Shown here piece by piece: positions 13,901-54,940 of a stretch of DNA of 64,000 bases. Position 1 is the stretch's first letter. Every line of letters starts with the position of its first letter. This DNA comes from a virus. Taxonomy: Duplodnaviria > Caudoviricetes. The stretch covers positions 192,001 through 256,000 of IMG/VR virus record IMGVR_UViG_3300037722_000745. One strand, 5' to 3'. The translations under genes and the position numbers were made by a program. The notes under the pieces were generated by a model that saw only the letters and a list, made by a program, of their open reading frames with translations, searched no databases and was not told the origin of the DNA.

Positions 13901-15125
13901 CCCAGCAATTGCCAGTGAGGACACCGCCTTCCAACGTAAAGGAGCGTGTCTTCGGCTCGACTACGCAAAAGACCTCCTCCTCGCGACCCTCGTCTACAAC
14001 TCTGAACACTTGGTACTCAACAGGTTCCGGGCGCAGCGTGATCGTAACCAAAGGCGCAGATCGAGGACCGTAGTTCGTGTCTCCGGTCTCCACGGAGTAT
14101 CCCGTCACGCAGTAACCCAGCAAGGGTGCACGTTCGGTTGCCCATTGGATCGCCTGTGCGTTCTGAGATCCCAACCGAGGGCCCTGCTTACTTGGATCCT
14201 TACGGTCACTACCATCCATCGCTTTCCAACCTTCCAAGAACCCAGCTTGGTAGGTCAACGATGTGGCTCTATCCGGGAGGGCTTTCAGGTTGGCTTGTGA
14301 TCGCAGGAACACCACAGAGTCGCCCTGATATGAAGGAGGGGAGCATGTGTTGTGGTGCAAAGGACTCGACTCTAACACCGTCAGATACCGCGCTTTGGCC
14401 CCACAAAGCCGAACCTGGTATTGCCCCTCTCGGCCCGTAGACTGCGACCCGTCCCCGAACACGAGACCATGCACAAACCCTGCACGGTAGAAGCTCGACT
14501 CCACATCATGTTGGGTGGGCGTGACGACAACACGATCGCCAACGGAGAGGTCAGTCACTTCACCGCGGTTTGACGTGAACCACCGATGGTCCCGCGTCGC
14601 GCAGAATTCCATAACGTACTTGGAGGCCCCAGGGAGCTTGAACCCGTAGGTCAAAAGCTTCTGCTTACCGAAGGACCGAACCTCAGCCGGAGACCACCCA
14701 CCGTCCTTGGTCAACACCTCCACCTGCTGGCCTACCAAGTCCCGAAGAGACGCAAGCTCCCCGTTCGCCCAAAAGCGAGTCTCCCCTGCAAAGCAATTGT
14801 ACCTAGCGTCCGCTGGGATCCCTTCAACACCTCCGACCCATAGCCCACGCCCAGGGGGTAGCGCCTGACCCGTCCAAAAAAGATGAAAGAGCTTCTCTGC
14901 CTCGCGTTGGGATGGCTGCTGATGAGCCAGGGCCATATTACCTTCCACTACGCGACGAATCGTATCGGTCCACGTCTCACCATTGCGGCAGTACTTTGAC
15001 AGGTATGTTGACCGAGCTAAGAGCGTGCGGAATGGATCGCCCATCTGCCGGTACAGGGCCAAGAAAGATTCCTGGAGCTTGAAAGGCTGTGCTGTCTCCG
15101 TCGAAGTGTGGCGGACGATCTCCAT
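10893..15125 (-). CDS. nrdJ: Class II (adenosylcobalamin-dependent) ribonucleotide reductase with two inteins
   Basis: Spliced motifs YN/CW and NP/CGEIPL, TTTKPSGTISLL, C-terminal ECANGVCPVR. Confidence 0.92.
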   Translation of the reverse strand: MEIVRHTSTETAQPFKLQESFLALYRQMGDPFRTLLARSTYLSKYCRNGETWTDTIRRVVEGNMALAHQQPSQREAEKLFHLFWTGQALPPGRGLWVGGVEGIPADARYNCFAGETRFWANGELASLRDLVGQQVEVLTKDGGWSPAEVRSFGKQKLLTYGFKLPGASKYVMEFCATRDHRWFTSNRGEVTDLSVGDRVVVTPTQHDVESSFYRAGFVHGLVFGDGSQSTGREGQYQVRLCGAKARYLTVLESSPLHHNTCSPPSYQGDSVVFLRSQANLKALPDRATSLTYQAGFLEGWKAMDGSDRKDPSKQGPRLGSQNAQAIQWATERAPLLGYCVTGYSVETGDTNYGPRSAPLVTITLRPEPVEYQVFRVVDEGREEEVFCVVEPKTRSFTLEGGVLTGNCWGVTLRSIDDWCWVMNQLMLGGGVGVGLGSLGLLGKVSAGSGSSRMAVWCRHDHPNVEDVGPNDKEFLNGQTPVHQIPDSREGWVESLRLVLQAAFEGRDIIVDLSDIRPRGEPIRTFGGVACGPGPLSMLLRFSWDIVRGAVGRGLTSVECLDITNLIGFCVKSGNVRRSALIVLGDAEDRPFRDAKKDFEAVKSHRHTSNNSLLFYTDKQIAEFDWHGMVEDNILYGEPGLLNLALIRKTDPGATVINPCFSGDTKIAVADGRNSVSIRQLAEEGEDVPVYSLNKETGKIEIKMGRNPRITGYNQKLVRVWLDDGSHLDTTPNHGFLLRDGTPVEAKDLQPGDSLPRFKKALEKVKKGGKDYYRIYCNTRHPDRDKIFEHRLIACFQDPDGWDRVYSVCAENGFANTGGLVVHHKDYDQLNNAPDNLQIMTFRDHAKLHGEKDNSGEANGRWSGLTCGELKDHGLTLTRKLGRRFSKKDWLEYASAQGIPQAFSGYRSWKSVVELAKQCASELGLEHVDTDPRVIKTLCSMLEQGYEAFIKDSKVFVVKSCEGCSASFEVEHSYRERSFCSEACGNAYINSDAKVKAKRLQAMDTHYGSKQVATKVEQARVCSDLAFRLGRHPNRKEWSLACKGEGVPSRIGPTLKHGFKKFSEVLEAASDYNHKVARVEELEGEHTVYNLTVDENHTVSVITKEHKNLDKFWFSGVSVRQCGEIPLHNREACNLAEAFPAQFDGSTDPGTVFRLLTRYCLRQRLTPLLDEESDEVRRKNMRLGVGLGGICDFDWVGPQLARWFEVCRLEANSYADELGVARPNAVTTTKPSGTISLLNSSSPGIHAPFAPYYIRRARLAVNEPMTRALQEAGVAWEYDVYDQTGHTLVFSFPTKAVHTRVTVQTETIDDQFERQALIQEWWADNSVSATLSFNPETERERTAELLAKYVPRFKSTSLLAKAHGYAQAPYEEISESQFQEMFSGIKHDHPLVNDGGDVEIEECANGVCPVR
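11766..13151 (-). other. Intein 2 in NrdJ (462 aa, HNH-type, Gln-terminated)
   Basis: Starts CFSGDT in the NP/C active site, VYNLTVDENHT block, ends SVRQ followed by Cys; VHHKDYDQLNNAPDNL HNH motif. Confidence 0.9.
13908..14795 (-). other. Intein 1 in NrdJ (296 aa, LAGLIDADG-type)
   Basis: Starts CFAGET, ends LTGN followed by Cys; GLVFGDGS and GWKAMDGS blocks. Confidence 0.9.
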
Positions 15126-23971: not shown

Positions 23972-25375
23972 TCAATCCGCGCCCTTGAGGTTCGAGACCG
24001 GGTAAAGCCGGTGTTCAACTCTCGCAATCCCCTCCGCCTCTAGAACGGCGAGAACCGCGTCGAGATCCTTGTAGACGTGCCCGCACTCATCAAGCGGCGT
24101 CTTCTTGTGATTGCCCACGATCCCCTCGATCTGGACGCCGCCGAAGGTTCGCTTGACGCTCGCCATCTCGTTGTCGATTCGAGCCTGCTTGTGCCCCAGC
24201 CGGCGCTTCGCTTCTGAGCGGCCTAAGATCCGACCCGAACCGTGGTTCACCGAGCAGGCGGACTTGTAGGCCCCATCTCCCGGGAACAGGATCGCAGCAC
24301 CTTCGTACATCGAGCCCGGAATGAGGCACGGGTGACCCGTAGTCTCCCACGCCGTCCCTACCAGGTCAGGATGCCCTGCCGGAAAGGCTCGGGTTGCTCC
24401 CTTCCGATGCACGAAGCCCCGCTTGTGGGTCCCGTCGGGCAGCACAAGGGTCTCTTCCTGCACCAGGTTGTGGCTGATCTCGTAGTAGACTTCGAGGTCA
24501 GCGTTGAACACTTCCTGCGTCGCCTCTTGAACCCCCACCACGATCTGATGACGGTTCGCGACCGCGAAGTTGGCCGCCGAGTTGTGGTAAGCCCAGTACT
24601 CTCGACCAAGAGGCTCATCTATTCGAAGCCAGGAATCCTCTCGACGGTTCTTCGGTAACCCCCGGAGAGCGGCCCCTTCGTAGAAGAAGTGGTTCGCCGT
24701 CTGCCAACCGTAGCCCCGCGACCCACAGTGGACCATCACCCAAACCGACCCGTCATCTCGATCGACTTGCATCTCGATGAAGTGGTTGCCGCCACCCACG
24801 CTACCGAGCTGGTCGGACACCTTCGAGTAGGCTTTCTCGATGTGACTTAGATCCAACGTCTCCGGGATCGGGATGTACCGCCGCTCACAGAGCGCCTCGT
24901 TGATCCCCAAAGACTTGGCCCCATATCGAAGCACCTCGTCGACCTGACGAGAGCCCAGCCGCCTCATGAGGGCAGGCCGCTCGGACCCTACGCCGGTCGC
25001 CACCCGCTTCTCGACTTCCTCGACCCACTGCTGACGCTTGTGCCGACTCCGAACCGCCTTGGCTCCAAGGTTCACTTTCATGCAAAGAGCCCCGCACGAG
25101 ATGTCGTAGCCCGAGCCGCCCTGGATGATCGTGTCTTCAGTCACGATGACCGAGCCGACCGGCACGCCGTATCCCCTGTGGCAATCCGGCATCAGGTACG
25201 CCCCAATGACCCCCTCGTAGGACGCCCCGTTCGCGATCTGCTGCCAGACCGACTCTTCCGACGCCGCATAAAGGTCATCCGACAAAAAGGCATGAGCCTC
25301 CACCCGCATCTGCCCAACGCGGGGCAGCACGTAGTGATTGTCGCTGACCTTCTGAGCCTGGTACTTGAAAGACAT
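23972..25375 (-). CDS. rtcB: RtcB RNA ligase
   Basis: MPDCHRGYGVPVG, GYDISCG, GSVGGGNHFIE, MVHCGSRG, SHN, HRKGATRA, NHGSGR. Confidence 0.95.
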   Translation of the reverse strand: MSFKYQAQKVSDNHYVLPRVGQMRVEAHAFLSDDLYAASEESVWQQIANGASYEGVIGAYLMPDCHRGYGVPVGSVIVTEDTIIQGGSGYDISCGALCMKVNLGAKAVRSRHKRQQWVEEVEKRVATGVGSERPALMRRLGSRQVDEVLRYGAKSLGINEALCERRYIPIPETLDLSHIEKAYSKVSDQLGSVGGGNHFIEMQVDRDDGSVWVMVHCGSRGYGWQTANHFFYEGAALRGLPKNRREDSWLRIDEPLGREYWAYHNSAANFAVANRHQIVVGVQEATQEVFNADLEVYYEISHNLVQEETLVLPDGTHKRGFVHRKGATRAFPAGHPDLVGTAWETTGHPCLIPGSMYEGAAILFPGDGAYKSACSVNHGSGRILGRSEAKRRLGHKQARIDNEMASVKRTFGGVQIEGIVGNHKKTPLDECGHVYKDLDAVLAVLEAEGIARVEHRLYPVSNLKGAD

Positions 25376-25379: not shown

Positions 25380-25598
25380 CTACTTCACGTAGGAGAAGGT
25401 GCCGTCCGAAGCCGCCTCCAACCCGAGCTGCTCGCCGGGAATTCGGCTTAGCACGCCCAAGGGCTTGCCGCCCTTCGTGATGATAAAGGTCCGACCTAGC
25501 TCCACCATACGCATCACCTCTCCCGGCCGACCGCGGAGTTCAGTCATCGTGATGGTCTCTAGATCGTTCAACTGGACGGCTTCCTGAATCCTCTGCAT
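25380..25598 (-). CDS. Phd/YefM-like antitoxin
   Basis: TITMTELRGRPGEVMRMVELGRTFIITKGGKPLGVL. Confidence 0.7.
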   Translation of the reverse strand: MQRIQEAVQLNDLETITMTELRGRPGEVMRMVELGRTFIITKGGKPLGVLSRIPGEQLGLEAASDGTFSYVK

Positions 25599-25704
25599 GG
25601 GGCTCCAATTAGGAATGGGGCGACAGCCGAAGCCGCCGCCCCATACCGTCTCAGATTGACAGGGTCGGGTGGCCGTCTTCGAGCCACACTGGTTACGTTA
25701 CCGC

Positions 25705-26179
25705 GTCTCGCCGCAGCGAGCAATCAGGATCGGTCCCCAGCGGCTGATTCCTGCCGGAGGCAGTCACGCCTACTCCGCGTCTCGCCGCAGCGAGCAATCA
25801 GGATCGGTCCCCAGCTGATCATCACGATTCAGCTGCCGGCATCCGCTTCAAGTCTCGCCGCAGCGAGCAATCAGGATCGGTCCCCAGGACGTCCTCGAGA
25901 TCAACGGCAACGAGTACGACGCGAGGTCTCGCCGCAGCGAGCAATCAGGATCGGTCCCCAGCTACGGCGTCCGACGTGATGAGCGTGGCCGCGAGAACGT
26001 CTCGCCGCAGCGAGCAATCAGGATCGGTCCCCAGCAGCGTGCGAGCTGCGGATCGGTGGCTGCAGCCTTGTGTCTCGCCGCAGCGAGCAATCAGGATCGG
26101 TCCCCAGCTGCAAAAACTGGACTTCGCGTTATATGCCGTCCTCGTCTCGCCGCAGCGAGCAATCAGGATCGGTCCCCAG
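25705..26179 (-). CRISPR. Type V (Cas12j) CRISPR array: 7 repeats, 6 spacers (36-38 nt)
   Basis: Identical 36-nt repeat CTGGGGACCGATCCTGATTGCTCGCTGCGGCGAGAC with 3' hairpin CTCGC/GCGAG, 128 bp downstream of cas12j. Confidence 0.98.
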
Positions 26180-26307
26180 GGCTCCAGTGGAAGCCCAGAC
26201 ATTCCAATCGGTTATAAGCCGCATTGCGAGCGGTCCCAAGTACCACAGATTCAGATGTCAAAGAACACGGGCGGAAAGTGCCCAGGGTGTGGGCTAAACG
26301 ACCGAAT

Positions 26308-28464
26308 TCACTCAGCCGCGAGAGACTCCAGGGGGGTAGACGCCACTGAGGCTCTCGCGGCTTTCCGGAGGGATACACCAGTGATGGCTACCATCGCGAT
26401 ATTATAGGCAGCCACATCGATGTCCGCGTTCCCACGGTACCCGCAACAAACACATATGAAAGCTTCACGATTGACTCGGTCTCGATTGGCCTTGTCACAG
26501 TGCCCGCACTCGGGGCACGTCCGTGATGTATTATACGGATCCACTTTGATCACCCGATAGCCTCGGTGCACAGCCAAGTCGCAGAACGCTCCGAAGAGAG
26601 CGTCCATGAGCCACCGCCCTTCCTGTTTGGCTGCGAAGAAACCACCCCACCCTGACTTACGGCTCCCCTTCCCGCCTCTACGGAAGCTGTGATGAAGGTC
26701 CTCGACCGCTACGATGACCTTTCCGCACTGAGCCCGCTTCTCGGCTGTCCTAATGACGTAGTTGACGCAGTGTCGCGACAACTCCTTCTTGCGGATGGAT
26801 AGCTGGTGGTACTTCGAGCTGTTCCTTTCAGCCTCCCATTTGGCTTCGTTCAGTGCCTTGCGGGTCTCGGATGTCAGTTGAGGCCGAAAATGCTGAGCCC
26901 AGTTCACGTCCCATCTCTTGCGAATCTCGGTCTTCCGCTTTTTCCCTTTACCCTTGAAGAAGGGGAACATGTAGAGCGTGTCGTCCACACCACGTTCCTT
27001 CGCCAAGTCAGATAGAATAGAGCTTCGACTGTTCACCTTGTCCCAGGGTACTTCATCCACCGATAGCCCGAGATGGCCACACACCTGCATCTTGGCTTGC
27101 TCTGGTCCGAAGGTATCCAACGCCAACACCTCCGCTTGTTGTTCGGCGGTCAGAGAGCGTACGGCTGCTAACCGCAAATTCTCTTGGTGCTTGTCATACG
27201 CCTTACGAAACCGGAAGAAGTCCTCTACAGTCTGCTCCGGTAACGTAAAAGCCTGCAACCGTTCTACGCACTTCCCTGGACGAATCCGTAGCGCATTCGC
27301 AGCGATCAAGTTGTTGACGCCTAGATCGACACCTACGAGGCTAAACGTCTCCGTGGTGTCATCTAGCATCTTCGACACATAGGATCCCTTCACAACCTTG
27401 GCCTTGACGACCGGCACGACCCCTTGCTTATAGATCAACGTGGCGGTGTAACGTACCGGCTTGCCCGGCTTCTTCACTACACTCAACGTGGGGTCATTCG
27501 TCACCAGATTCAGAAGACTCTCAATCGTCACCGGCACCGATCGGTCTAACAATTTGCGGTACTGTGTGTTGCGGAGAAGCCCTCGGAGATCGAGAAGTGC
27601 CCAGTCATCAGCTACCCTAACGACCGCCAACAACATGTTGTCGTCGATCGCCCCACCACGTGAGCGTGCCCAAGAAGCCCGTTTCCGACGGTGCTTCTTA
27701 ACGGAAAGATTTTCTCGATCCCATGGGGGTACATACCCCGGTTGACCTTCAGGTATCTCTAGCCGATCTACACCACAAGCGGCGATGGGTGTTGACGGAT
27801 CTCGGCTATAACCCGTCACCCCAGGAATGGACCCAGGCACATAGGGCTTCAACTTCATATGCTGGTACCCAAACACGCTACAGTTGATCCCCGGGCGGTG
27901 CCGCAGATGACCTGTCTCATCGAGGGCCGTTTCAGGTTCGTCGAGTGTTAGAAGAGGTAGGCCACGTTCTGCCCGATGCTCGTTCCGCTGTTCAATCTTT
28001 GCTACCTTTTTGCTGTTGCGATTCTCAACCTTCTTGAGAACCCCCTCGTAGGTGGCCCGAGCGTTTTGGAAAATCAGGTTGAGACCTTGGACATTGAAGT
28101 ACCCGTCCGTGTCCACCCGCGTAGCCTTAAGCCAGGCCCTAAGCCCTGCTTCAGACTTCCCAGGATCCGTAGCCTTGAACTCCTCGTAACTCTGAGCATA
28201 GACGTACTTCTGGATCACCACCGACGCTTTGTAGATCGGCCACTCCTCCAAAGGCCGACTCATCGCCACGATGTTACACTTCACCGGAGGTTTGAAATTA
28301 GGCTGTGTTGTGCCCCCCTTTCCTTCAAGAAAGGCCACAGCAGCGCCTTCGCCTTTCGACTTGAGGATCCTACCAGCCTGCCTCGAGTCATGTTTTTTGA
28401 ACCGCAGCCCAGGGAAGGACTTCTTACAGAGGGCGACGAGTGGGGTTTCCTTTTTGTCTGGCAC
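26308..28464 (-). CDS. cas12j: Cas12j (CasPhi) type V effector, 718 aa
   Basis: Split RuvC (VGVDLG, VAVEDL, NADIDVAAYNIA), Zn ribbon CPECGHC..C..C, and NVQGLNLIFQNAR and C-terminal LAAE segments recalled from CasPhi-1; adjacent array; no cas1/cas2 in the window. Confidence 0.93.
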   Translation of the reverse strand: MPDKKETPLVALCKKSFPGLRFKKHDSRQAGRILKSKGEGAAVAFLEGKGGTTQPNFKPPVKCNIVAMSRPLEEWPIYKASVVIQKYVYAQSYEEFKATDPGKSEAGLRAWLKATRVDTDGYFNVQGLNLIFQNARATYEGVLKKVENRNSKKVAKIEQRNEHRAERGLPLLTLDEPETALDETGHLRHRPGINCSVFGYQHMKLKPYVPGSIPGVTGYSRDPSTPIAACGVDRLEIPEGQPGYVPPWDRENLSVKKHRRKRASWARSRGGAIDDNMLLAVVRVADDWALLDLRGLLRNTQYRKLLDRSVPVTIESLLNLVTNDPTLSVVKKPGKPVRYTATLIYKQGVVPVVKAKVVKGSYVSKMLDDTTETFSLVGVDLGVNNLIAANALRIRPGKCVERLQAFTLPEQTVEDFFRFRKAYDKHQENLRLAAVRSLTAEQQAEVLALDTFGPEQAKMQVCGHLGLSVDEVPWDKVNSRSSILSDLAKERGVDDTLYMFPFFKGKGKKRKTEIRKRWDVNWAQHFRPQLTSETRKALNEAKWEAERNSSKYHQLSIRKKELSRHCVNYVIRTAEKRAQCGKVIVAVEDLHHSFRRGGKGSRKSGWGGFFAAKQEGRWLMDALFGAFCDLAVHRGYRVIKVDPYNTSRTCPECGHCDKANRDRVNREAFICVCCGYRGNADIDVAAYNIAMVAITGVSLRKAARASVASTPLESLAAE

Positions 28465-32637: not shown

Positions 32638-32975
32638 ATAACCTCAGTTCAGCGCGGACAAGCCACGCTGTTGGACAGCTGTAACAGCTCCCTTTCGAAC
32701 ATACTGTACGATTCCCTGCGGGCTAATACACAGATCCTCAATAGAAAACCTGACGGCTGCCTTACAACAACTGCGACCCCAACCCGCACTCAGTGCTCGA
32801 CGACCCGCTTGATCACAAGAGCAACGACCGCAATTGAGGCACACGTAAACCTGCTCTTCAGGAACGGCCATAGCATTCCCTCTCCCACACTACACCACGA
32901 AGCACCCTATGAAAGAATTACATCAACGGTGTTCATCTTATCCCCGTGCCTAAAAGGACCGTGCCTAAAAGGACC

Positions 32976-32994
32976 GTCTCGCCGCAGCGAGCAA
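32976..32994 (-). repeat. Solitary Cas12j-family repeat (3' 19 nt)
   Basis: gtctcgccgcagcgagcaa abutting a 15-bp tandem duplication (32944-32973). Confidence 0.85.
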
Positions 32995-33009
32995 AGCTCG
33001 GGAGCATCA

Positions 33010-36496: not shown

Positions 36497-36544
36497 TGTC
36501 AGGACGTGGGATCGAACCACGCTGGCTTCCAAACAAGTCCTGAC
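36497..36544 (-). other. tRNA-like minihelix (acceptor plus T arm, no D arm) fused to a repeat
   Basis: GTCAGGA...CGTGG-TTCGATC-CCACG-TCCTGAC-A. Confidence 0.6.
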
Positions 36545-36563
36545 GTCTCGCCGCAGCGAGCAA
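36545..36563 (-). repeat. Solitary Cas12j-family repeat (3' 19 nt)
   Basis: gtctcgccgcagcgagcaa. Confidence 0.85.
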
Positions 36564-36592
36564 AGCAAATAGTTGTCTGGGGTGCAGACTAG

Positions 36593-36719
36593 CGGGGCTA
36601 TTGGGAGTCGAACCCAAGCTTGTAAGGACCAACAGCGTCTCGCTTGCACGAGAGAGGGTTGAACCTGGTTTGTTTCCTCGTTATTAGCAAGGTGACGGAC
36701 CGACCGTCTGTATAGCCCC
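36593..36719 (-). ncRNA. tRNA-like RNA with large variable-region insert (Y-RNA-like family, copy 1)
   Basis: Acceptor GGGGCTA/TAGCCCC, T arm, insert with GCAA hairpin and CTTACAAGC. Confidence 0.6.
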
Positions 36720-38912: not shown

Positions 38913-39863
38913 CTAACCCACATGCCGAAACACTACAAGACGACCTTCCCGCTCCGCCTGGCGAATGACCGGCGGCAGAGATTCTAAACTCAACCAAGCA
39001 TCCCCGCGGGTGCCGCCCGCAAAATCCGTGTCGTCGTAGTGTGCCGTCAGACAGATGCCCGCGTCGATGATCTGTAGAGTCCGAGCGTCGCATGTGCACT
39101 CGTAACGCCGCCCACCCATCCGGAACCGCACGACCATCTCGTTGCGTCGCGGGGCCTGCCGGTGATCGAGATACTCAGCCTCACCAACCGCGAGAGCCGC
39201 CCGAGCCGCGGTCCCGAAATCCTCTTGGGCCAACGCCCGCCGGCCAGCACCATCACCGAGCTGCTCCGCGATCTCCCGACGACGGGTTTCCCGCTGCCGT
39301 TCCTCTTCCTCACGCTGAAGGCGTTCCGCCAGCTCCCGCCGACGCCGCTCCGCCTCCAACCGCCGCCACCGCTCAAGCGTGAAGGCGACATCCAAAGCCG
39401 GCGACACCTCTCGGATATCAGCTAGCGTATCCTTGCCGTCCAGAAAGGCCGTCTGCACCTCGAACTCGGGCCCCAGAGGCATTTCTTGCTGGATGTAGAC
39501 CAACGGGCCGTCCTCGGACACGCGGCCCGCAGAGACCCGTACGAAGCGATCTAGGCCCGGTTCGATGAGATGGACCCGCTCCGTCTCGCTCTTAAAGGAG
39601 GCGAGCTTCCTTTGCGAAGCCGACACGAGCCGATCGCCGACCAGGTAGCCTACCTCTCGGTACTTGAGCTGCTCCGGCTCGGGATCACACACCTCCTGGA
39701 CCCGAGCCGTCCGACCGCCCACCGAGAACCGAACCCAGCCATGCTCCGCCGGCAGCCGACCCTCGATCACCCACCGACGTGGGCCCGACCGGAGGGACCT
39801 ACCCCCAATCCAAGGCGCGACAAGCGTCTCGCCTTCAGTCGCAAGTAAGTCTCTCCAACCCAT
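38913..39863 (-). CDS. Putative E2-like (UBC-fold) protein containing an in-frame CRISPR repeat
   Basis: C-terminal IIDAGICL (candidate catalytic Cys); operon with JAB, Ubl and E1. Confidence 0.6.
   Translation of the reverse strand: MGWRDLLATEGETLVAPWIGGRSLRSGPRRWVIEGRLPAEHGWVRFSVGGRTARVQEVCDPEPEQLKYREVGYLVGDRLVSASQRKLASFKSETERVHLIEPGLDRFVRVSAGRVSEDGPLVYIQQEMPLGPEFEVQTAFLDGKDTLADIREVSPALDVAFTLERWRRLEAERRRRELAERLQREEEERQRETRRREIAEQLGDGAGRRALAQEDFGTAARAALAVGEAEYLDHRQAPRRNEMVVRFRMGGRRYECTCDARTLQIIDAGICLTAHYDDTDFAGGTRGDAWLSLESLPPVIRQAEREGRLVVFRHVG
39583..39618 (-). repeat. Solitary family-2 repeat inside a CDS
   Basis: gtctcgctcttaaaggaggcgagcttcctttgcgaa encodes SQRKLASFKSET. Confidence 0.88.
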
Positions 39864-40329: not shown

Positions 40330-40713
40330 CTACCAGACGACGCCCCCACCTCGTTTTTCAAGCCGGCCCGCAGAGACCCGTACAAAGCGATCTAGGCCCG
40401 GTTCGATGAGATGGACCCGCTCCGCAGCACGGAGAACCTCCCCGTCCGCTTGTCCAGCCTGAACCGAGGACGGTACGAGGCGATCTCCAACGAGATAGCC
40501 AACCTGCCTGTGCCACAGGCTTTCTAACTCAGGTTCGGCCAGAGCCTTGACCTGAGCCTTACGTCCCTCCAACGCAAACTCAATCCAGCCATGCTCTACA
40601 GGAAGGCTCCCCTCGATGACCCAGCGACGGGAGCCCGACCGGAGGGACCGGCCCCCAACCCAAGGTGCGACAATCGTCTCACCTTCTTTCTGAAGTAGGG
40701 TCCTCCAAGTCAT
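40330..40713 (-). pseudogene. Truncated paralog of the E2-like gene (N-terminal 127 aa)
   Basis: APWVGGRSLRSG, EHGW, YLVGDRLV and ERVHLIEPGLDRFVRVSAGR shared with the E2-like gene. Confidence 0.8.
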
Positions 40714-44824: not shown

Positions 44825-45243
44825 GCCTTCACCGGCTCACAAAACGTTCAGCGGACTACTTCCCCTTGGGGGACCAACCTACCCGAAATAACCGATAGGG
44901 CCTCATAGGACTCGATCAATGCCTGTCTGGTAGGGATGGTATAACCTAGCCACACAGACAGGTCTCTTTGGCCCAAACCACCCACGATGCTGAGCAAGTA
45001 AATCACAGCGAGGAAATCGTTCATAGGACCTCTATCCCGCCCGAGTTGTCAGCCCCGCCGCTTGTTCTTGTTGCGGGGCTTCTGTGCCCCACGCTTGACC
45101 CAGCGGCCGGCATTCTCGTTCCGATGGGGCGGGCAGAACGAGCATGACAGATCGACGACCCGCTTGACGCGCTTGTATGTCCGACTGTCGTTCTCTTCCT
45201 TGAGCTGCTGTGCTGCCTTCATGTTGAGCCTCGCTAGGATGGG

Positions 45244-45326
45244 TGCAAGCGGAGGGAGTCGAACCCTCACGGGCTTTCGCCCACAACGACCTCAACGTTG
45301 CGCGTCTGCCATTCCGCCACGCTTGC
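45244..45326 (-). tRNA. tRNA-Leu(GAG)
   Basis: Class II cloverleaf. Confidence 0.9.
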
Positions 45327-45368
45327 AGTAGTATGTCATGGGTTTCTCCCATTCCGTTACTCGTGGCT

Positions 45369-47712: not shown

Positions 47713-47786
47713 TGGTGGCGACGAGGGGACTTGAACCCCAGCCGACAGCCTTATGAGAGCCGCGTCCTAACCCGTAGGGCGTCGCC
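47713..47786 (-). tRNA. tRNA-Met/Ile2(CAT)
   Basis: Acceptor GGCGACG/CGTCGCC-ACCA. Confidence 0.8.
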
Positions 47787-49442: not shown

Positions 49443-50051
49443 GCCTTGGCTGTAGGCAAGAATTTAACGAAGCTCAGACTGTAACTCTTGAGGGGTCGAA
49501 ATTTTGCGCATAACACCATAGAAAAGCCATAAATGGCTTAGCAGCTTACCTTGAAGGCTGGCACCCAGGACATCGAACTCGAAGCTTATGGGGAGCAACC
49601 CCACATGGAAAGAGTGTTCGGGATCCTCTGCGCATGCTCGGGCCAATCCTTGAACTTGTCGCCGTAGTTCTCTCGACACAACCGAGTGATCGCGATGTGA
49701 GAACTGAGACACACAGACATGATCTTACGCGTCTCCCTGGCACTCAATCCAGAAGCCGTAGGCCCAGACCTCCACAGAGCCGACAACTCCTCCTCACTAA
49801 GAGGAGCTTCCAGACTCCCTCCCAAATCGGACAAGGAAGCGTCAATATCCGCTGTAGAGGCCATCTCTCGGGTTTTTGATTGTGTTTCTGATGGGCGGAA
49901 TATACACCGCAGGCAGCATGCCCCCGAGCGCCCAAAGCGGAAGCCGGAGAACTCGAATCCCAAACGACCCCGAGAGGCCGTTCCCACCGCTTTCCAAGCG
50001 GGTCCAGTCCCTAACTGGTTCAGCTTCCAAGGGGAGCCTGTTGAGGGAATC

Positions 50052-50158
50052 GTCTCGCCGCAGCGAGCAATGAGTGCATGACTACACCAAGCCAACAAGC
50101 GCTGATGGAAGCAGGCCAGTTGCGTGACTACGTAGTGGACCTGTCGGGAGTTGAACCC
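50052..50158 (-). repeat. 107-bp duplication (copy A) ending in a 20-nt Cas12j-family half repeat
   Basis: 2 mismatches versus 51439-51545. Confidence 0.9.
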
Positions 50159-50212
50159 CGATCCCGGTTACCACCGTACCAAGGTGGTGCTCTGCCACTG
50201 AGCTATACGGGC
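50136..50212 (-). pseudogene. Chimeric tRNA: Thr(GGT) 5' part plus Ala(TGC) 3' end
   Basis: GCCCGTA does not pair with CAGGTCC; T arm and 3' end match 51520-51545. Confidence 0.7.
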
Positions 50213-50547
50213 GTTGAACCGAAAGACAACCCTCTCTCTAGCTTGCCTCCTAGACTCCATATCGCGTAAGGCATGCCTCAGAATTTGAAGGTTGACGATC
50301 GCATCGTAAAGCTCCCGCTCCTTCGCTCCGCTGTCTATAAGCCTCTCTAGTTTATCGATCTCTCGTCGGATCCGATTCCGATCTTGCAAACGCTTAGGGA
50401 GCCGCAAGCCTGTGGTCCGATCCTGACGCTCAACCTTCCTAAGTTGCTGCTCGATATAGTCCACCTCTTTTGGGGTCAAGGATCGAGGCAGTAGTCCAGG
50501 CCGAGGGAAAGTCACCTCAAAAGGACGGTCCGGTTTGGGTACCGGCA

Positions 50548-51054
50548 TCAGATCTGACCTAACACCTTTCGAACCAACCGCATGAACGTCAGTCCAGCGA
50601 GTTCAGGATCTGTGCTGAATGCGGTCTCCGTGATAGACCGTTTGAAGTCAGCTCCGCTCAAGGGTTTGTGAGGCACATACCCGAACGAAAGTAACGGAAG
50701 ACCGCCCCGGATTGACAACATCAACGTGAAGGTCTCCAAAGCGGGTCGAGTGGAGAAGTAGTAGTACAGCTTCATCCGCTGCTGGGTAGCATTCATGTAG
50801 AAACGATCGCCATGGAACTTCCGCCTGAATGCTGAAAGGGCCTTGGGTAAGAGGATCTCGATAGACAACTTGGCCGCATCAAAGACCTCTTGCGCAGACG
50901 TTGGCACCCCGACTTCAGGAGGACCCCAACGAGCTTGCCGGGCCATCCTCTCGGACCACGGAACGACCCATGACGGGATTTCCGGCTGCCAGTCCCCAAG
51001 GGCTACCTGGTAACCCCACCTGGCCGCCACGCGCTTTGCAAGAGTACCCATCAC
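50548..51054 (-). CDS. Hypothetical protein
   Basis: 168-aa ORF with N-terminal AKRVAARW. Confidence 0.6.
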   Translation of the reverse strand: MMGTLAKRVAARWGYQVALGDWQPEIPSWVVPWSERMARQARWGPPEVGVPTSAQEVFDAAKLSIEILLPKALSAFRRKFHGDRFYMNATQQRMKLYYYFSTRPALETFTLMLSIRGGLPLLSFGYVPHKPLSGADFKRSITETAFSTDPELAGLTFMRLVRKVLGQI

Positions 51055-51084
51055 CTCGTGCAGTGTGATGGGTAGATTAGTGAG

Positions 51085-51158
51085 GCTACCTGACGGGACT
51101 CGAACCCGCTCTCACCGGACCCACAATCCGGCCGCCATCCTATCGGCGCTCAGGCAGC
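51085..51158 (-). tRNA. tRNA-His(GTG)
   Basis: G-1:C73, loop TT-GTG-GG. Confidence 0.8.
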
Positions 51159-51258
51159 AGAAGTATCACAACGGTCCCGGGCCGGGTGCGACGAGCTAGC
51201 CACACGCGCCGAGTAGCTAGCTCGGACGCGCTGCGTTCTGTGCCCCGTTGTGACACGG

Positions 51259-51341
51259 TGCGAACGAGAGGAGTCGAACCTCCACGACCTCGCGATCAGC
51301 TGGGTTTGAGCCAGCCGCGTCTGCCATTCCGCCACGTTCGC
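51259..51341 (-). tRNA. tRNA-Leu(CAA)
   Basis: Class II cloverleaf. Confidence 0.9.
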
Positions 51342-51355
51342 GTGAGCACTACTCA

Positions 51356-51391
51356 GTCTCGCTCTTAGGGGAGGCGAGCTTCCTTTGATCC
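51356..51391 (-). repeat. Solitary family-2 repeat variant
   Basis: gtctcgctcttaggggaggcgagcttcctttgatcc; stem CTCGC/GCGAG. Confidence 0.78.
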
Positions 51392-51438
51392 CATACAGGA
51401 AATCCTTCTTGCAAGCTACGGTGCTGGAGACAGGAGTC

Positions 51439-51545
51439 GTCTCGCCGCAGCGAGCAATGAGTGTATGACTACACCAAGCCAACAAGCGCTGATGGAAGCA
51501 GGCCAGTTGCGTGACTACGTGGTGGACCTGTCGGGAGTTGAACCC
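51439..51545 (-). repeat. 107-bp duplication (copy B) ending in a 20-nt Cas12j-family half repeat
   Basis: See copy A. Confidence 0.9.
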
Positions 51546-51591
51546 GCAAACTCTCCTTGCAAGGGAGAGCCCTGACCCGTCAGACAAGCCC
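51520..51591 (-). tRNA. tRNA-Ala(TGC)
   Basis: G3:U70, CCA, atypical D arm. Confidence 0.75.
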
Positions 51592-51596
51592 ATTTA

Positions 51597-51676
51597 GGTC
51601 CGAGGCGAATTGTCGACTCCGCGTCTCCAGCTTCCGTACGCAATAGCTGGCGCTCTAACACTGAGCTACTCGAACC
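51597..51676 (-). other. tRNA-like element with 12-nt anticodon loop and degenerate T loop
   Basis: Acceptor GGTTCGAG/CTCGGACC; stem CCAGCT/AGCTGG around ATTGCGTACGGA. Confidence 0.5.
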
Positions 51677-51678
51677 AG

Positions 51679-51750
51679 CGGAGCCGAGGGGACTCGAACC
51701 CCCCTCACTGGCGTGACAAGCCAGCCGCCTCACCCGATGCGTACGGCTCC
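51679..51750 (-). tRNA. tRNA-Asp(GTC)
   Basis: Cloverleaf, G73. Confidence 0.85.
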
Positions 51751-51754
51751 GTAA

Positions 51755-52009
51755 GTCCCACTCTTGATGGAGGTGGGCTTCCGTTGTGACCGTGCGGATT
51801 TCGGAGATGACGCTGAAGCCGTCATCGGTCCCACTCTTGATGGAGGTGGGCTTCCGTTGTGACTTCGCTCCGATCGCAATCCCGCAGGATCGCGACCAGC
51901 CGTCCCACTCTTGATGGAGGTGGGCTTCCGTTGCTGCCAGGCAGGACGGCTCGAAGTGGCTAAGATGATGTTGGTCCCACTCTTGATGGAGGTGGGCTTC
52001 CGTTGCTGC
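51755..52009 (-). CRISPR. Second CRISPR array (family 2): 4 repeats, 3 spacers (36-38 nt), no adjacent cas gene
   Basis: 36-nt repeat GTCAC/GCAGC-AACGGAAGCCCACCTCCATCAAGAGTGGGAC; leader-like region 52010-52160. Confidence 0.95.
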
Positions 52010-52356
52010 AGTGCGCTCAAAAAGACCTAAAATTTCCAAAGAGCTGAGAGCCGGATTGCGAGAGCCTCTGCAAACTCCCGCTAAATCCGACTCCATGGAG
52101 AGTACTACACTGTTCACAGAGAGCGCAAGACCCTAAATTCATTGTCTTGCGAGCGATCCCCGGGCTCCAGGCGTCACCGAGGCTCTCGCGTTCCGATGCC
52201 GTCCAACAAGGAAACTCCACGTCCCGGCGAAGAGTTGAGAGCATGGGCAGTACCGTGCCCACAAGGGCCAGTCCTCTCGCTCAACCCCGCGAAGTCGAGC
52301 TGTTTCAGGAATGTGACACGGGTTTTGGTTGATGCTGGCCAAACATGACTACCCAG

Positions 52357-52432
52357 TGGAGCCGGCGGGGATCGAACCCGCCGCAAAGCCGCATTGCAAG
52401 TGCAGCTCGCCCCCGCCAACCGATACGGCTGA
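52357..52432 (-). pseudogene. Degenerate tRNA-Ala(TGC)
   Basis: T arm and anticodon intact, 5' end eroded. Confidence 0.55.
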
Positions 52433-52440
52433 GGGGTATC

Positions 52441-52833
52441 TCACCGAAGAGATGACGGCTCATAAAGTGTCAATAGCTCCTTTGCCCAATCTACGAGGTC
52501 CGACACCCTCGCGCCGGTAGGTTGCGGACTTCGCCACAACTCCAGGTTGCACGGTCTGTTGTCGTCCCTAACCCCGTTCTTGTGGTGTACCGTCTCACCC
52601 GGCAAGAGATAGCGGCCAAGGACTTCCTCCATCACAAGGATGTGCTCAAACACGTACGGACCGCTTGTAGCCCTAGGGTGCAGCGGAACTCGCCGCATCA
52701 CGTATCGAATCGGATCGCCGCACCCAAGGCAGGGTACCTTTGGGAGAGATCGCCGCCGACACATCGGGCATTTCCGATGTCTGCTACTTGGTGTGAAAAG
52801 TCTGCAACACGAGCTACAAGTTTTGACAGCCAT
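52441..52833 (-). CDS. HNH homing endonuclease
   Basis: YVFEHILVMEEVLGRYL..VHHKNGVRDDNRPCNLELW. Confidence 0.85.
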   Translation of the reverse strand: MAVKTCSSCCRLFTPSSRHRKCPMCRRRSLPKVPCLGCGDPIRYVMRRVPLHPRATSGPYVFEHILVMEEVLGRYLLPGETVHHKNGVRDDNRPCNLELWRSPQPTGARVSDLVDWAKELLTLYEPSSLR

Positions 52834-52896
52834 TAGTCACCGAGACAGTCTCGGCGTGCAGGGTACACCACGTGCAGGTTGCCATCTTCGTACCCT

Positions 52897-53295
52897 TGGA
52901 CTCGGTGGGAATCGAACCCACGTCCTAGAAAGCTATCGAACAGCGTCTACGTGCGTAGCGTGACTTCGGACTCGGTTAAGGTCGTGCCCATGCCTCACGC
53001 CGGCTTCCACCTGGGGCGTGACTGGTTTTCCAGTCTTGCCTCCACCACCGATCTAGCGACCTAAGGTCTTGCGACCCGTTTCCCACAGCCAATCGGACTC
53101 TGTGGTGCAGCCCTGCGTTTACTTACGCCGCTCGAAATCGAAGCAGGGAATCTACCCCGAGCGACGGCTCAGGCAGCCTGAGCAAAGCCGTTATAGTTGG
53201 CTTTTCTTGTTTGGTCGGCTTGATAACCCGGCCTGCTGACCAACCGGGGCACGCTGCTGCTCGAATTACCTCCCAGTCGAAACCTTTACGAGCCC
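52897..53295 (-). ncRNA. ssrA: tmRNA
   Basis: GGGCTCG/CGAGTCC-A with G3:U70, GGTTTCGAC 5' motif, T arm; tag frame ends ANYNGFAQAA-stop. Confidence 0.92.
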
Positions 53296-53322
53296 TAAAT
53301 CTGTCATCGCATACACCAAAAG

Positions 53323-53399
53323 TCTGGAGCCCCTTCCCGGAATCGAACCGAGTTATCTGGTTTACAAGACCAGCGCATCACCAACTATGCTTAAGGGGC
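53323..53399 (-). tRNA. tRNA-Thr(TGT)
   Basis: Cloverleaf, CCA. Confidence 0.9.
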
Positions 53400-53625
53400 T
53401 TAGCTACGCCAGCAGAAAACGCTAGAGTTCTCACACCGGTCCGCACTCTAGCAGCGGCCCTACATACCCCGGGCCGCCAGCCTAGCTTGGCAGCCCACCA
53501 GGGGCCTGGTGTCAGGCGGGACGCCGTCCGAATACCTCAGAGCTTTTGACCGGGCTAGAGAGCCCAAGATGAGGGTCATCGTTCAGCATCGACCGGTGGA
53601 GAAAATGGTAGCGACGGAGGGAGTC

Positions 53626-53647
53626 GTCTCGCCTCAGCGAGCAATCA
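53626..53647 (-). repeat. Solitary Cas12j-family repeat (3' 22 nt) fused to a tRNA 3' end
   Basis: gtctcgcctcagcgagcaatca; followed on the minus strand by GACTCCCTCCGTCGCTACCA. Confidence 0.88.
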
Positions 53648-53683
53648 AGTTGGCGGCCACCGCCAAAAGCCCCGTAAAGTTTA

Positions 53684-53828
53684 GCCCGCGTTCGAGATGA
53701 GCGACCTGGTTAGCGATTGCTTGTTTTCCGAACAAGTGCGTTTGCCAGTTACGCCACAAAGGCCGGACGGCCTTCGACGGGACTCGAACCCGCATATGCA
53801 TGTAAGATCGTTCTGGCGGAACGCGAGC
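53684..53828 (-). ncRNA. Circularly permuted tRNA-like RNA (YrlA-like Y RNA candidate)
   Basis: Terminal helix GCTCGCGTTC/GAACGCGGGC enclosing T arm, loop-closed acceptor stem, D arm and anticodon-like arm. Confidence 0.7.
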
Positions 53829-53961
53829 TGGTGGGGAGTCTTGGAGTCGAACCAAGTTTGCTTGTAAGCGCCGCTGGCGGCTCCCTTGCGGGAGCGAGAG
53901 GCAGTGCTGGAGTATCGCTTTCGATTTACCGTCGAAATAGAGGCCAACCCTCCTACTCCCC
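53829..53961 (-). ncRNA. Tyr-like tRNA with about 60-nt variable-region insert (Y-RNA-like family, copy 2)
   Basis: GGGGAGT/ACTCCCC-ACCA, loop CG-GTA-AA, insert with GCAA hairpin, CGCCAG and CTTACAAGC. Confidence 0.65.
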
Positions 53962-54068
53962 AGATGCCGGTGCTCACCACACCACCGTCGTCAACGCAAG
54001 GGACCGGCGCCCCTGTGAAGCTCTCTGGCGATGATGCAGTACCCTCTCTAATACACCAAAGAAGGCGG

Positions 54069-54140
54069 AGCAGGTAGAGGGAATCGAACCCTCGCCTCCA
54101 GCTTGGCAAGCTGGCATCCTACCGACTGGACGATACCTGC
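54069..54140 (-). tRNA. tRNA-Gly(GCC)
   Basis: Cloverleaf. Confidence 0.9.
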
Positions 54141-54216: not shown

Positions 54217-54236
54217 TTGTTTGGTTGCGGGAGCCG

Positions 54237-54264
54237 GTCTCGCTCTTTCAGGTGGCGAGCTACC
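54237..54264 (-). repeat. Degenerate solitary family-2 repeat between duplicated tRNA-fMet 3' ends
   Basis: 24/28 to the 54941 variant; 14-bp direct repeat at 54224-54237 and 54281-54294. Confidence 0.72.
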
Positions 54265-54281
54265 ACGGTTTTTCAAACCAG

Positions 54282-54353
54282 TTGCGGGAGCCGGAATCGA
54301 ACCGACGAGGCTTGGGTTATGAGCCCGAGTTGAGGGCCAACACTCTTCCCGCG
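54282..54353 (-). tRNA. Initiator tRNA-fMet(CAT)
   Basis: C1xA72 mismatch, GGG/CCC anticodon stem. Confidence 0.85.
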
Positions 54354-54427: not shown

Positions 54428-54431
54428 GTTG

Positions 54432-54472
54432 TGGTGGGTCCTCTCGGGATCGAACCGAGTTCTCCGATTTTT
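54432..54472 (-). pseudogene. tRNA 3' half (from the anticodon loop to CCA) fused to a repeat
   Basis: AAAAATCGG-AGAA-CTCGG-TTCGATC-CCGAG-AGGACCC-ACCA. Confidence 0.75.
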
Positions 54473-54508
54473 GTCTCACTCTTGTAGGGGGTGAGCTTCC
54501 CTTACTCC
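54473..54508 (-). repeat. Solitary family-2 repeat variant
   Basis: gtctcactcttgtagggggtgagcttccctt; stem CTCAC/GTGAG. Confidence 0.78.
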
Positions 54509-54535
54509 CCACTGGCCTACTAGCCAACCACTCAG

Positions 54536-54895: not shown

Positions 54896-54940
54896 AGATT
54901 TATCTCGCTCTTCCGCCAGCCAAGGCATACACGCATTGCT

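Follow-up and report, generated by a model that had tools for sequence, protein, structure and literature searches.

In the tRNA operon of a huge phage, three solitary units carrying the repeat of the phage's own CasPhi (Cas12j) CRISPR array were found fused, with zero spacing, to 19-20-base tRNA tails. These fusions are tentatively read here as solo crRNA units within the operon that owe their origin to T-loop recombination and are aimed at intact alleles in related phages, a reading that is plausible if short of probable; the three fusions could equally have originated as recombination scars between tRNA genes. The window (the whole stretch of 64,000 nucleotides that was analysed) comes from a 323-kb contig of this phage, which has a GC content of 56% and an estimated completeness of 68%. 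The phage carries 43 tRNAs, a near-complete set, together with a tmRNA.

The contig encodes a type V-J (Cas12j/CasPhi) locus with an effector gene and an adjacent array. The effector matches the CasPhi-2 structure (E-value 2.3e-159, residues 9-703), and a TNB domain is its Pfam match. Its RuvC triad D380/E588/D681 is intact, and 11 aligned homologues show no variation in the catalytic columns. The array lies on the same strand as the cas gene, in the orientation relative to it that was observed in five other CasPhi loci; the 3' hairpin of the repeat ends in GAC, an architecture repeated in these five loci, and the ATTGC-hairpin-GAC core of the handle is conserved across all six. The features of the locus and its surroundings are:

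26308-28464, minus strand: Cas12j/CasPhi effector gene, CasPhi-2-like, 718 aa, matching PDB 7lys (CasPhi-2)
about 25670-26180, minus strand: CasPhi CRISPR array of 7 repeats of 36 nt, ending ATTGCTCGCTGCGGCGAGAC, adjoining cas12j
2554-2643, minus strand: CasPhi mini-array of two repeats
23972-25375: RtcB ligase gene, adjoining the CasPhi array

The solo units share the 20-mer ATTGCTCGCTG(C/A)GGCGAGAC, which occurs on the minus strand, i.e. the strand encoding the tRNAs, at positions 50052-50071, 51439-51458 and 53626-53645. Compared with the 3'-terminal 20 nt of the seven repeats in the array (at 25705-26163), these 20-mers show either identity or one changed loop base, and the 20-23 nt identical to the 3' part of the array repeat make them candidate handles, as judged by sequence. 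The earlier note had described three Cas12j half-repeats; they are genuine CasPhi handles, but for 50052 and 51439 the term half-repeat falls short, since both units contain a variant repeat of ~45 nt, shared with a fourth copy (genome position 11450). The units and the tRNA tails abutting them are:

50052-50096, minus strand: solo unit 1, variant CasPhi repeat whose 3' 20 nt are those of the array repeat
50033-50051, minus strand: tail 1, tRNA nt 57-75, GATTCCCTCAACAGGCTCC (GATT, CCCTC, AACAGGC, U73, CC)
51439-51483, minus strand: solo unit 2, variant repeat as in unit 1
51420-51438, minus strand: tail 2, tRNA nt 57-75, GACTCCTGTCTCCAGCACC (GACT, CCTGT, CTCCAGC, A73, CC)
53626-53648, minus strand: solo unit 3, 23 nt in common with the array repeat, loop variant TGAG
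53606-53625, minus strand: tail 3, tRNA nt 57-76 with CCA, GACTCCCTCCGTCGCTACCA (GACT, CCCTC, CGTCGCT, A73, CCA), followed by TTTT

In a second CasPhi phage the array is made wholly of half-repeats, thus truncated repeats do serve as units, which counts for a guide function. No promoter-like site was seen beside the solo units, which counts against guides; read-through of the tRNA operon is therefore assumed for their transcription.

The tails are genuine tRNA 3' fragments starting at nt 57, with the T loop (57-60), T stem, acceptor strand, discriminator and CC(A) in register, as had been claimed before. All three fit the pattern R57-A58-N-Y60-C61-Y62, followed by 3+7 nt, the discriminator and CC, which (as a regular expression) is matched at 7.7e-4 of the genome positions. 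Their types are Gly/Tyr-like (tail 1), Thr-like (tail 2) and Met-like (tail 3). In-register identity to the phage's own tRNA tails reaches 16/19 for tail 1 (with tRNA-Gly(GCC)) and 14/19 for each of the other two; at least 14/19 has a null probability of 7e-4, and comparisons among genuine tails give scores of 11-18. Tail 2 preceded by TTC (a 19-mer, TTC plus 16 nt) has exact counterparts in tRNA-Thr(UGU) on two unrelated phage contigs, and tail 3, from TTC through CCA, in tRNA-Met(CAU) genes of 13 bacterial species, the matching tRNAs being annotated or called by ARAGORN; TTC plus the first 15 nt of tail 1 is common to a tRNA-like gene in ~50 viral contigs. Overall, the tails are closer to phage tRNAs, own paralogues included, than to bacterial ones. 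Between tail 3 and the 5' part of the tRNA-Met that the phage encodes at 47713-47786, 11/12 positions pair. The tail sequences show no decay, tails 2 and 3 being identical to real tRNA genes, and this also speaks for guides.

A solo unit acting as a guide would consist of the handle part of the repeat that CasPhi keeps and of tRNA nt 57 to 75/76 replacing the spacer, the 5' part of the source tRNA being presumably lost from the genome. Transcription of the operon would lead to CasPhi loaded with a 19-20-nt guide, and in unit 1, where tRNA-Ser(GGA) starts 4 nt downstream of the tail, the 3' end of the guide would be set by the RNase P cut at this next tRNA. The match in an intact tRNA gene would lie directly after T54-T55-C56, a valid Cas12j PAM. 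The units probably arose and were re-assorted through recombination at the conserved T loop (between C and GAYTCC) and not via Cas1-Cas2 spacer acquisition. As the carrier has no intact copy, the likely targets would be related or competing tRNA-rich phages that keep the intact allele, and not the host. We infer that the units are transcribed and loaded into CasPhi, that genomes carrying the targets exist and that targeting has been selected for.

The proposal that the universal T-loop TTC would be the PAM agrees with published data, as the PAM of Cas12j3 is 5'-TTN, tested with TTC (PMC8298400), and that of Cas12j2 is TBN/TTN (PMC12841931). Cas12j2 uses 20-nt guides (PMC12841931), which equals the tail length of 19-20 nt and favours a guide function. 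Activation of Cas12j3 was reported for a hybrid of >12 nt (PMC8298400); among the phage's own TTC-flanked sites, tail 1 has its longest PAM-proximal match, of 9 nt, in tRNA-Gly(GCC), and tail 3 has one of 11 nt in tRNA-Leu(GAG), both below this length, so that the lack of self-targets is a further argument for guides. The statement that matching intact tRNA genes are missing from the window holds for the full 323-kb contig, from which a cognate intact tRNA for any tail is absent. Two points count against guides here: the contig is 68% complete and its missing part could hold the cognate tRNAs, and no close relative of the phage was retrieved.

The database search expected by the earlier note, with tails found at tRNA 3' ends after TTC, gave exact matches for tails 2 and 3 but not for tail 1, which has no exact match in IMG/VR or in GenBank phages. 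A GTTC in front of the matches is trivially true for any tRNA-derived fragment and thus does not demonstrate targeting. The exact, TTC-flanked matches of tails 2 and 3 lie only in implausible genomes, namely unrelated AT-rich phages or low-GC gut bacteria, and no plausible target genome was found. The claim that the guides are aimed at tRNA genes finds partial support: it has the handles, register, PAM, intact nuclease and absence of self-targets on its side, and the empty target search among the points against it.

Host tRNA genes are unlikely targets. The earlier note had named the host among the possible targets; in this version the guides would cut host tRNA genes and so destroy the chromosome, with the phage supplying its own 43 tRNAs. 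The near-complete tRNA set with a tmRNA would suit such a strategy, and the sequence of tail 3 is identical to that of bacterial tRNA-Met genes. We regard it as very unlikely, because 185,579 species genomes contain no tail 2 with discriminator A73, the bacterial matches of tail 3 are confined to gut Bacilli, Mycoplasmatota and Muribaculaceae with 23-31% GC (vs 56% in the phage), and the acceptor strand of tail 1 implies a tRNA starting with GCCTGTT, whose nearest matches are phage genes. Such a start would be unusual for a bacterial tRNA-Gly. The related idea of tRNA genes as integration sites is unsupported, since no tyrosine integrase was found in the 323 kb by a search whose controls did respond.

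A 113-nt module, present in two copies that form the direct repeat family D6 (97% identical), bears on the origin of the units:

51433-51545, minus strand: module copy A, comprising the tRNA-Ala(UGC) 3' end from the T loop, 62 nt, the variant repeat and the first 6 nt of the tail
50046-50158, minus strand: module copy B, joined to the 5' part of tRNA-Thr(GGU) (50137-50213)

Both ends of the module fall in T loops, the starting one in that of tRNA-Ala. tRNA-Ala(UGC) pairs 11/12 with its 3' end in copy A (G3:U70 included), and the stems of the chimeric tRNA-Thr(GGU) at copy B pair just 6/12; at least one copy is of recombinational origin. Moreover, a 1391-bp contig from 4 independent sequencing runs has both ends inside module copies. 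Because units 1 and 2 belong to a single duplicated module, the fusions do not count as three independent events, and since the module is bounded by T loops and its copying broke tRNA-Thr(GGU), the nt-57 register may be a by-product of T-loop homology, which weighs against guides. The "perfect register" of the earlier note is thus real, but largely explained by this homology, as the module bounds and the mis-paired tRNA-Thr chimera indicate.

About 20 further solo repeat hairpins, co-oriented with their neighbours, precede tRNA 5' ends by 4-45 nt or a Shine-Dalgarno sequence and start codon by 14-45 nt, which points to a general RNA-level role. Most of them are followed by a leader of 4-45 nt or a 5' UTR and by nothing spacer-like, an argument against guides, and hairpin pairing is kept through double changes (CTCGC/GCGAG, CTCAC/GTGAG, CCCAC/GTGGG), an argument for them. 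A matching layout occurs in another CasPhi phage, with one solo hairpin in the tRNA array and one 17 nt upstream of a start codon. Other orphan tRNA pieces beside solo hairpins, and an endonuclease gene, are:

54219-54264, minus strand: second-family solo hairpin, then tRNA-fMet nt 62-76
54431-54514, minus strand: second-family solo hairpin, then the 3' half of a tRNA-Lys-like gene
36498-36564, minus strand: solo CasPhi hairpin, an exact 16-mer match, directly adjoined by a mini tRNA-like element of acceptor stem and T arm
52441-52833: HNH endonuclease gene inside the tRNA array

These pieces break at nt 62, about nt 36 and nt 1, and no 5' half for the tRNA-Lys-like piece was found in the contig. 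The fMet fragment, the only one with a duplicate in the contig, repeats 13 nt from the tail of the neighbouring tRNA-fMet gene (54281-54353), and in that gene, too, a TTC comes directly before them. This independent fragment starts right after a TTC of its cognate tRNA, a trinucleotide found at only 2 places in tRNA-fMet, which again counts for guides. Two tRNA-like genes in the tRNA array have extra arms of 40-50 nt with repeat-like hairpins.

Much of this material also fits an explanation without targeting, which remains a serious contender though itself below an even chance: the repeat hairpins would punctuate polycistronic transcripts, as CasPhi binding or cleavage sites or as 5' stabilisers before tRNAs and mRNAs, and ectopic recombination at T loops together with endonuclease-induced repair would account for the orphan tRNA 3' ends that follow some of them, so that the tail "guides" would be incidental and without a selected target. 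The ~20 co-oriented hairpins and their recurrence in another CasPhi phage, the T-loop-bounded module with the chimeric tRNA-Thr, the orphan pieces broken elsewhere, the HNH gene within the tRNA array and the empty target search all argue for it. It leaves unexplained why three CasPhi-type hairpins are followed, with zero spacing, by sequence starting exactly after the PAM position and why the fMet fragment starts after TTC; the tails without decay also speak against it, and any transcript of handle and tail would still load CasPhi, so that "incidental" guides would exist anyway. A split or intron-containing tRNA gene, in which the repeat insert would be removed from the RNA and the tail joined to the upstream 5' part, is already disfavoured and the least likely of the alternatives. 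The RtcB gene adjoining the array and the two tRNA-like genes with extra arms would suit it, but adjacent 5' parts pair at most 9/12 with the tails, within the non-cognate range (tRNA-Thr 5' part and tail 1, 9/12, reached by 19% of non-cognate combinations; tRNA-Ala 5' part and tail 2, 7/12), tRNA-Ala is already complete without the tail, and cognate 5' halves are absent from the contig. Hardly more likely are RNA anti-CRISPR-like decoys that would tie up CasPhi made by competing phages. Viral solitary repeat units have been described as a class (PMC11656645), and solo hairpins are many here, but units copying the own array repeat would poison the phage's own effector, and the tRNA tails would be left unexplained.

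A variant of the targeting explanation, unlikely though ahead of host cutting, is that the units are natural CRISPR homing cassettes, a phage "gene drive". The repeat cassette would separate the PAM (T54-T55-C56) precisely from the remainder of the tRNA gene and so make the carrier allele immune. The crRNA of repeat and flanking tail would cut the uninterrupted allele of a co-infecting relative, and recombinational repair from the carrier would copy the cassette into the cut allele; T-loop homology could move it among tRNA genes, as the two module copies seem to suggest. The fMet unit would suit this scheme, since its guide would match the uninserted allele fully and the carrier allele over only 13 nt.

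Among known systems, engineered polycistronic tRNA-gRNA (PTG) arrays are a laboratory design with a tRNA-flanked guide whose ends are set by RNase P and RNase Z. Similarly, 4 nt separate the end of unit 1 from tRNA-Ser, and gaps of 4-45 nt lie between other solo hairpins and the tRNAs after them; here, however, the arrangement is natural and the guide itself tRNA-derived. The orphan 3' segments in native orientation and spacing, the 13-nt direct duplication of the tRNA-fMet tail and the chimeric tRNA resemble what remains of tRNA genes after integration or recombination at their 3' ends (att duplications, pseudo-tRNAs in phage tRNA clusters), but the junction partner is a CRISPR repeat handle and not an element end. 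They do not look like att-site remnants, as no tyrosine integrase was found in the 323 kb and only the fMet fragment is duplicated. The delocalized crRNAs of CRISPR-associated transposons (CASTs; types V-K and I-F3) have an atypical repeat and a spacer at or beside a tRNA gene (PMC11656645), and share with the present units a guide outside the array, a partly matching repeat and a tRNA-gene match. Nevertheless, the CAST effector is non-cutting and recruits a Tn7-like transposase for homing, whereas here the RuvC triad is intact and what stands in for the spacer is the 3' end of the tRNA itself, still in its native array setting. The units thus do not appear to be of the CAST kind; TniQ had no match in the contig either, weak evidence as the control genomes in that search were silent too. 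Viral mini-arrays, whose spacers usually target related viruses (PMC11656645), SRUs and Racr likewise comprise one or few virus-borne repeats outside a full locus. Mini-arrays and SRUs copy host repeats and borrow or inhibit host Cas proteins, while here the phage's own CasPhi array is copied, as a single repeat without a downstream repeat and with a tRNA tail as the guide.

If the units are real guides, they would be the first natural case of their kind, with the universal T-loop TTC as a built-in PAM; to our knowledge, no nuclease-active phage CRISPR system aimed at tRNA genes has previously been found in nature. New guides gained via recombination instead of Cas1-Cas2 would explain how acquisition-less CasPhi phages retarget, and engineered tRNA-gRNA arrays would have a counterpart in nature. 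Should the tails be scars after all, at least two huge phages still have CasPhi-type hairpins scattered before tRNAs and mRNAs, a sequence pattern which suggests that the RNA-processing activity of CasPhi may have been recruited for the maturation of phage transcripts.

The phage genome (a linear record of 323,174 bp with 56% GC and an estimated completeness of 68%) contains a tRNA operon of 42 tRNA genes and a tmRNA gene (32455-55829, all on the minus strand); Rfam thresholds were passed by 36 tRNA matches and the tmRNA. Unless marked as genome positions, coordinates are those of the window, which spans 192001-256000 of the record. The phage also encodes its own type V-J effector:

26308-28464, minus strand, Cas12j/CasPhi gene (718 aa; nearly full-length match to CasPhi-2, E-value 2.3e-159)

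In an alignment with ten homologues, the RuvC residues D380, E588 and D681 are invariant. Directly downstream of this gene lies the CasPhi array, consisting of 7 copies of a 36-nt repeat ending ATTGCTCGCTGCGGCGAGAC. In five other CasPhi loci the array is located on the cas strand and the repeat 3' end has the same core (ATTGC/ATGGC, hairpin, GAC), which fixes the reading direction: the handle (the 3' 20 nt of the repeat) comes first and the spacer follows GAC. An RtcB RNA ligase gene (23972-25375, minus strand) and a small PhdYeFM-antitoxin-like ORF (25381-25599, minus strand) are found immediately downstream of the array, and the order cas-antitoxin-RtcB recurs in three independent Logan contigs. 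The ribonucleotide reductase gene (10893-15125, minus strand) carries an intein with an HNH domain.

Outside the array, the 20-nt handle is present, with at most one loop change, at 50052-50071, 51439-51458 and 53626-53645 on the tRNA-coding strand. Each of these solo repeats (units 1, 2 and 3) passes directly after GAC into the 3' end of a tRNA (tails 1, 2 and 3):

50052, minus strand, unit 1 with tail 1, GATT-CCCTC-AACAGGC-T-CC
51439, minus strand, unit 2 with tail 2, GACT-CCTGT-CTCCAGC-A-CC
53626, minus strand, unit 3 with tail 3, GACT-CCCTC-CGTCGCT-A-CCA

The pattern of tRNA nucleotides 57-75 occurs at a frequency of 7.7e-4 among genome positions and in 3/3 tails. Aligned in register with the tRNA tails of the phage itself, tail 1 is identical at 16/19 positions and tails 2 and 3 at 14/19 each, where the null probability of at least 14 is 7e-4 and genuine tails share 11-18 positions with each other. 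Two unrelated phage contigs have tRNA-Thr(UGU) genes with an exact match to tail 2 and the TTC before it, and 13 bacterial species have tRNA-Met(CAU) genes that match tail 3 exactly, from TTC through CCA. For tail 1, a tRNA-like gene present in about 50 AT-rich viral contigs matches TTC and the next 15 nt. Based on pattern frequency, identity statistics and these outside matches, the handle-tail junctions are real, far beyond chance. The observation of the earlier note, that three Cas12j repeats are fused to tRNA 3' ends at nucleotide 57, was confirmed together with the tail sequences as written there; its interpretation of them as guides was supported only in part.

Units 1 and 2 belong to two copies of one 113-nt module, which are 97% identical. 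Copy A (51433-51545) starts in the T loop of tRNA-Ala(UGC) and forms the natural 3' end of that tRNA, with 11/12 stem positions paired, including G3:U70. In copy B (50046-50158) the Ala tail is joined to another tRNA:

50137-50213, minus strand, tRNA-Thr(GGU) recognized by ARAGORN and Rfam (33 bits), combining the 5' part of tRNA-Thr with the 3' end of tRNA-Ala

This chimera is the sole Thr(GGU) gene in the contig and, since its acceptor and T stems pair at only 6/12 positions, it is probably non-functional. Both module ends fall in T loops, and therefore the module was copied between tRNA genes via T-loop homology. A 1391-bp contig (obtained in four independent runs) terminates inside both module copies, which is how a real repeat would break an assembly. 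The variant repeat (~45 nt) has a fourth copy at genome position 11450, with a non-tRNA flank. Two ideas about tail 1 were rejected. Were it the tail displaced from the neighbouring tRNA-Thr(GGU), the two should pair, but the 9/12 positions that do so lie within the non-cognate range (P = 0.19). Folding of unit 1 suggested that tail 1 pairs with GCTTGTTGG of the module; this was dismissed as a coincidence, because the z-score is only -0.86 and unit 2 joins the same module to a non-complementary tail.

A genome scan identified 39 GAC-ending 5-bp hairpins of the CasPhi-repeat type. After subtraction of two arrays (7 and 4 repeats), a 2-repeat mini-array and a few probable chance matches, about 20 solos remain, which form two families: CasPhi (4-nt loop) and a second one (11-nt loop). 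Stem changes are paired between copies (CTCGC/GCGAG, CTCAC/GTGAG, CCCAC/GTGGG), so the hairpin itself is maintained. All solos at 32-56 kb are placed between tRNA genes, on the tRNA strand and 4-45 nt upstream of a tRNA 5' end, and others precede a Shine-Dalgarno sequence and start codon by 14-45 nt. One of the genes downstream of a solo hairpin starts near 43608. The second family comprises:

51755-52005, minus strand, array of 4 repeats within the tRNA operon, with tRNA-Asp 4 nt downstream
3664, 39583, 46574, 48876, 51356, 54237, 54473 and 54941, minus strand, solos (diverged copies)

Read on the minus strand (a provisional orientation), its repeat ends ...GGAAGCCCACCTCCATCAAGAGTGGGAC, and the diverged solos have the stem of the CasPhi repeat, CTCGC/GCGAG. 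The 18 nt after solo 39583 (39565-39610 region) recur exactly at 40406-40423 (minus strand), there preceded by GCTGC. The 18 nt after solo 54941 (54923-54940) resemble the 5' half of the variant CasPhi repeat when this is reverse-complemented, with identity at 15-16/18 positions (50066-50083 in unit 1, 51453-51470 in unit 2). In a third CRISPR family, the repeat starts with GTTTCAATTACGAGGGAGGC and its reverse complement ends with ATTGAAAC, as in type I/III repeats; this family comprises about 40 repeats in four arrays, with two loop variants, and a solo at window position 31806:

genome 35-256, 61368-61883, 64632-65525 and 120248-121200, outside the window, third-family arrays

The contig yielded no second effector to go with the other repeat families, and the 323 kb gave no Pfam match to Cas7 or Cas5d. 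Besides CasPhi, the TNB domain occurs only in a TnpB-like ORF of 282 aa with OrfB_IS605 and TNB domains (genome 292778-293626, minus strand), which is probably truncated.

Other solo hairpins also adjoin tRNA pieces, whose breakpoints differ from nucleotide 57. One is followed by nucleotides 62-76 of tRNA-fMet, of which 13 nt duplicate the tail of the adjacent intact gene, there also preceded by TTC. In this region (54219-54353, minus strand) the tRNA-fMet gene, with C1:A72 and no encoded CCA, is followed by a 44-nt hairpin-bearing insert and then by its last 13 nt again, now with CCA, as if an insertion had duplicated a 13-nt target. Another hairpin precedes the 3' half of a tRNA-Lys-like gene, and yet another a mini tRNA-like element starting at nucleotide 1. 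Behind a solo CasPhi hairpin at 32943-32995 (minus strand), GGTCCTTTTAGGCAC occurs twice in tandem, and a start codon comes next. Two tRNA-like genes missed by ARAGORN (36594-36719 and 53826-53962, minus strand) fold into cloverleafs in which the acceptor stem of 7-8 bp is perfect and an extra arm of 40-50 nt has a repeat-like hairpin at its tip (z-scores -3.1 and -2.6, respectively); the former has the anticodon loop CUAAUAA.

Cas12j3 recognizes a 5'-TTN PAM (assayed with TTC) and is activated by hybrids longer than 12 nt (PMC8298400), and Cas12j2 uses a TBN/TTN PAM and 20-nt guides (PMC12841931). The proposal that the T-loop TTC would fit the PAM agrees with both, and since TTC and the tail length fit these data, a crRNA composed of handle and tail would be able to target the tRNA gene in its intact form. 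The array spacers and tail 1 have no matches in GenBank phages, so that protospacers gave no PAM for this phage's own CasPhi. Only 4 nt separate tail 1 from tRNA-Ser, and cutting by RNase P would therefore leave a guide of 23 nt.

The earlier note had seen no matching intact tRNA in the window, and none for any tail exists in the whole 323-kb contig. The best own TTC-flanked sites give PAM-proximal matches of 9 nt (tail 1, tRNA-Gly(GCC) at 54067-54140) and 11 nt (tail 3, tRNA-Leu(GAG) at 45240-45327); tail 2 has no such site in the contig. The expected database hits, exact and TTC-flanked in tRNA genes, were obtained for tails 2 and 3, as they would be for any fragment derived from a tRNA, and tail 1 has no exact match in IMG/VR or GenBank phages. 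None of 185,579 species genomes contains tail 2 with A73, the bacterial genomes matching tail 3 have 23-31% GC (phage 56%), and no plausible target genome was found. Since the tails are closer to phage tRNAs, including this phage's paralogues, than to bacterial ones, the targets, if any, would probably be related phages and not the host; among the competitor phages, prophages or host suggested before, related phages are thus favoured.

Searches for close relatives by exact repeat or repeat-plus-tail patterns in IMG/VR, by CasPhi protein in IMG/VR and GenBank phages, and by megablast of the region found none, and 15 single matches of the repeat pattern in JGI metagenomes were chance-like. The phage itself is carried in sequencing runs SRR12682375, SRR33174183 and SRR12683306. 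A 529-kb CasPhi phage (G001; L027 1501-1519, L037) likewise has an exact solo handle among its tRNA genes, with no recognisable tRNA tail after the repeat, and another in a 5' UTR, 17 nt before the start codon. In a further CasPhi phage (G004), the array upstream of cas (L061 ~1500-1750) contains half-repeats only (5 units of 19-22 nt, spacers of 26-40 nt).

Our tentative reading is that these are solo crRNA units, which may have been created and re-assorted by T-loop recombination and would be aimed at intact tRNA alleles of related phages. Possible too, and ranked only slightly below it, is that the units are recombination scars, i.e. hairpins with an RNA-level (processing) role, the tails being left over from T-loop recombination while the tRNA array rearranges. 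Scars would account for the duplicated module, for the tRNA-Thr chimera and for the numerous hairpins that no spacer-like sequence follows, and an HNH_3 endonuclease gene (52441-52833, minus strand) lies within this array; however, they leave unexplained why three CasPhi hairpins abut their tails without spacing right after the PAM position, why TTC precedes the fMet fragment and why the tails are undecayed. A split-tRNA or intron reading fails the pairing test, and the contig contains no 5' halves (the search for cognate ones returned only chance 7-mers). An att-site origin, in line with the earlier note's remark on tRNA genes as common integration sites, has no support, as no integrase was found in the contig. 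CAST-like homing guides also fit poorly: the search for a transposon context gave no TniQ (although its controls were silent too), and the RuvC triad predicts an active nuclease.

The known systems that come closest are CAST crRNAs of the delocalized, tRNA-directed kind and, in viruses, mini-arrays or solitary repeats (PMC11656645). Unlike in these, the effector here is the phage's own CasPhi, predicted to be nuclease-active, the guide would be a native tRNA tail and the PAM the universal T loop. Judging from the sequence, any transcribed RNA with handle and tail would load CasPhi, so that de facto guides would exist whether the units are aimed at related phages or are scars of recombination.
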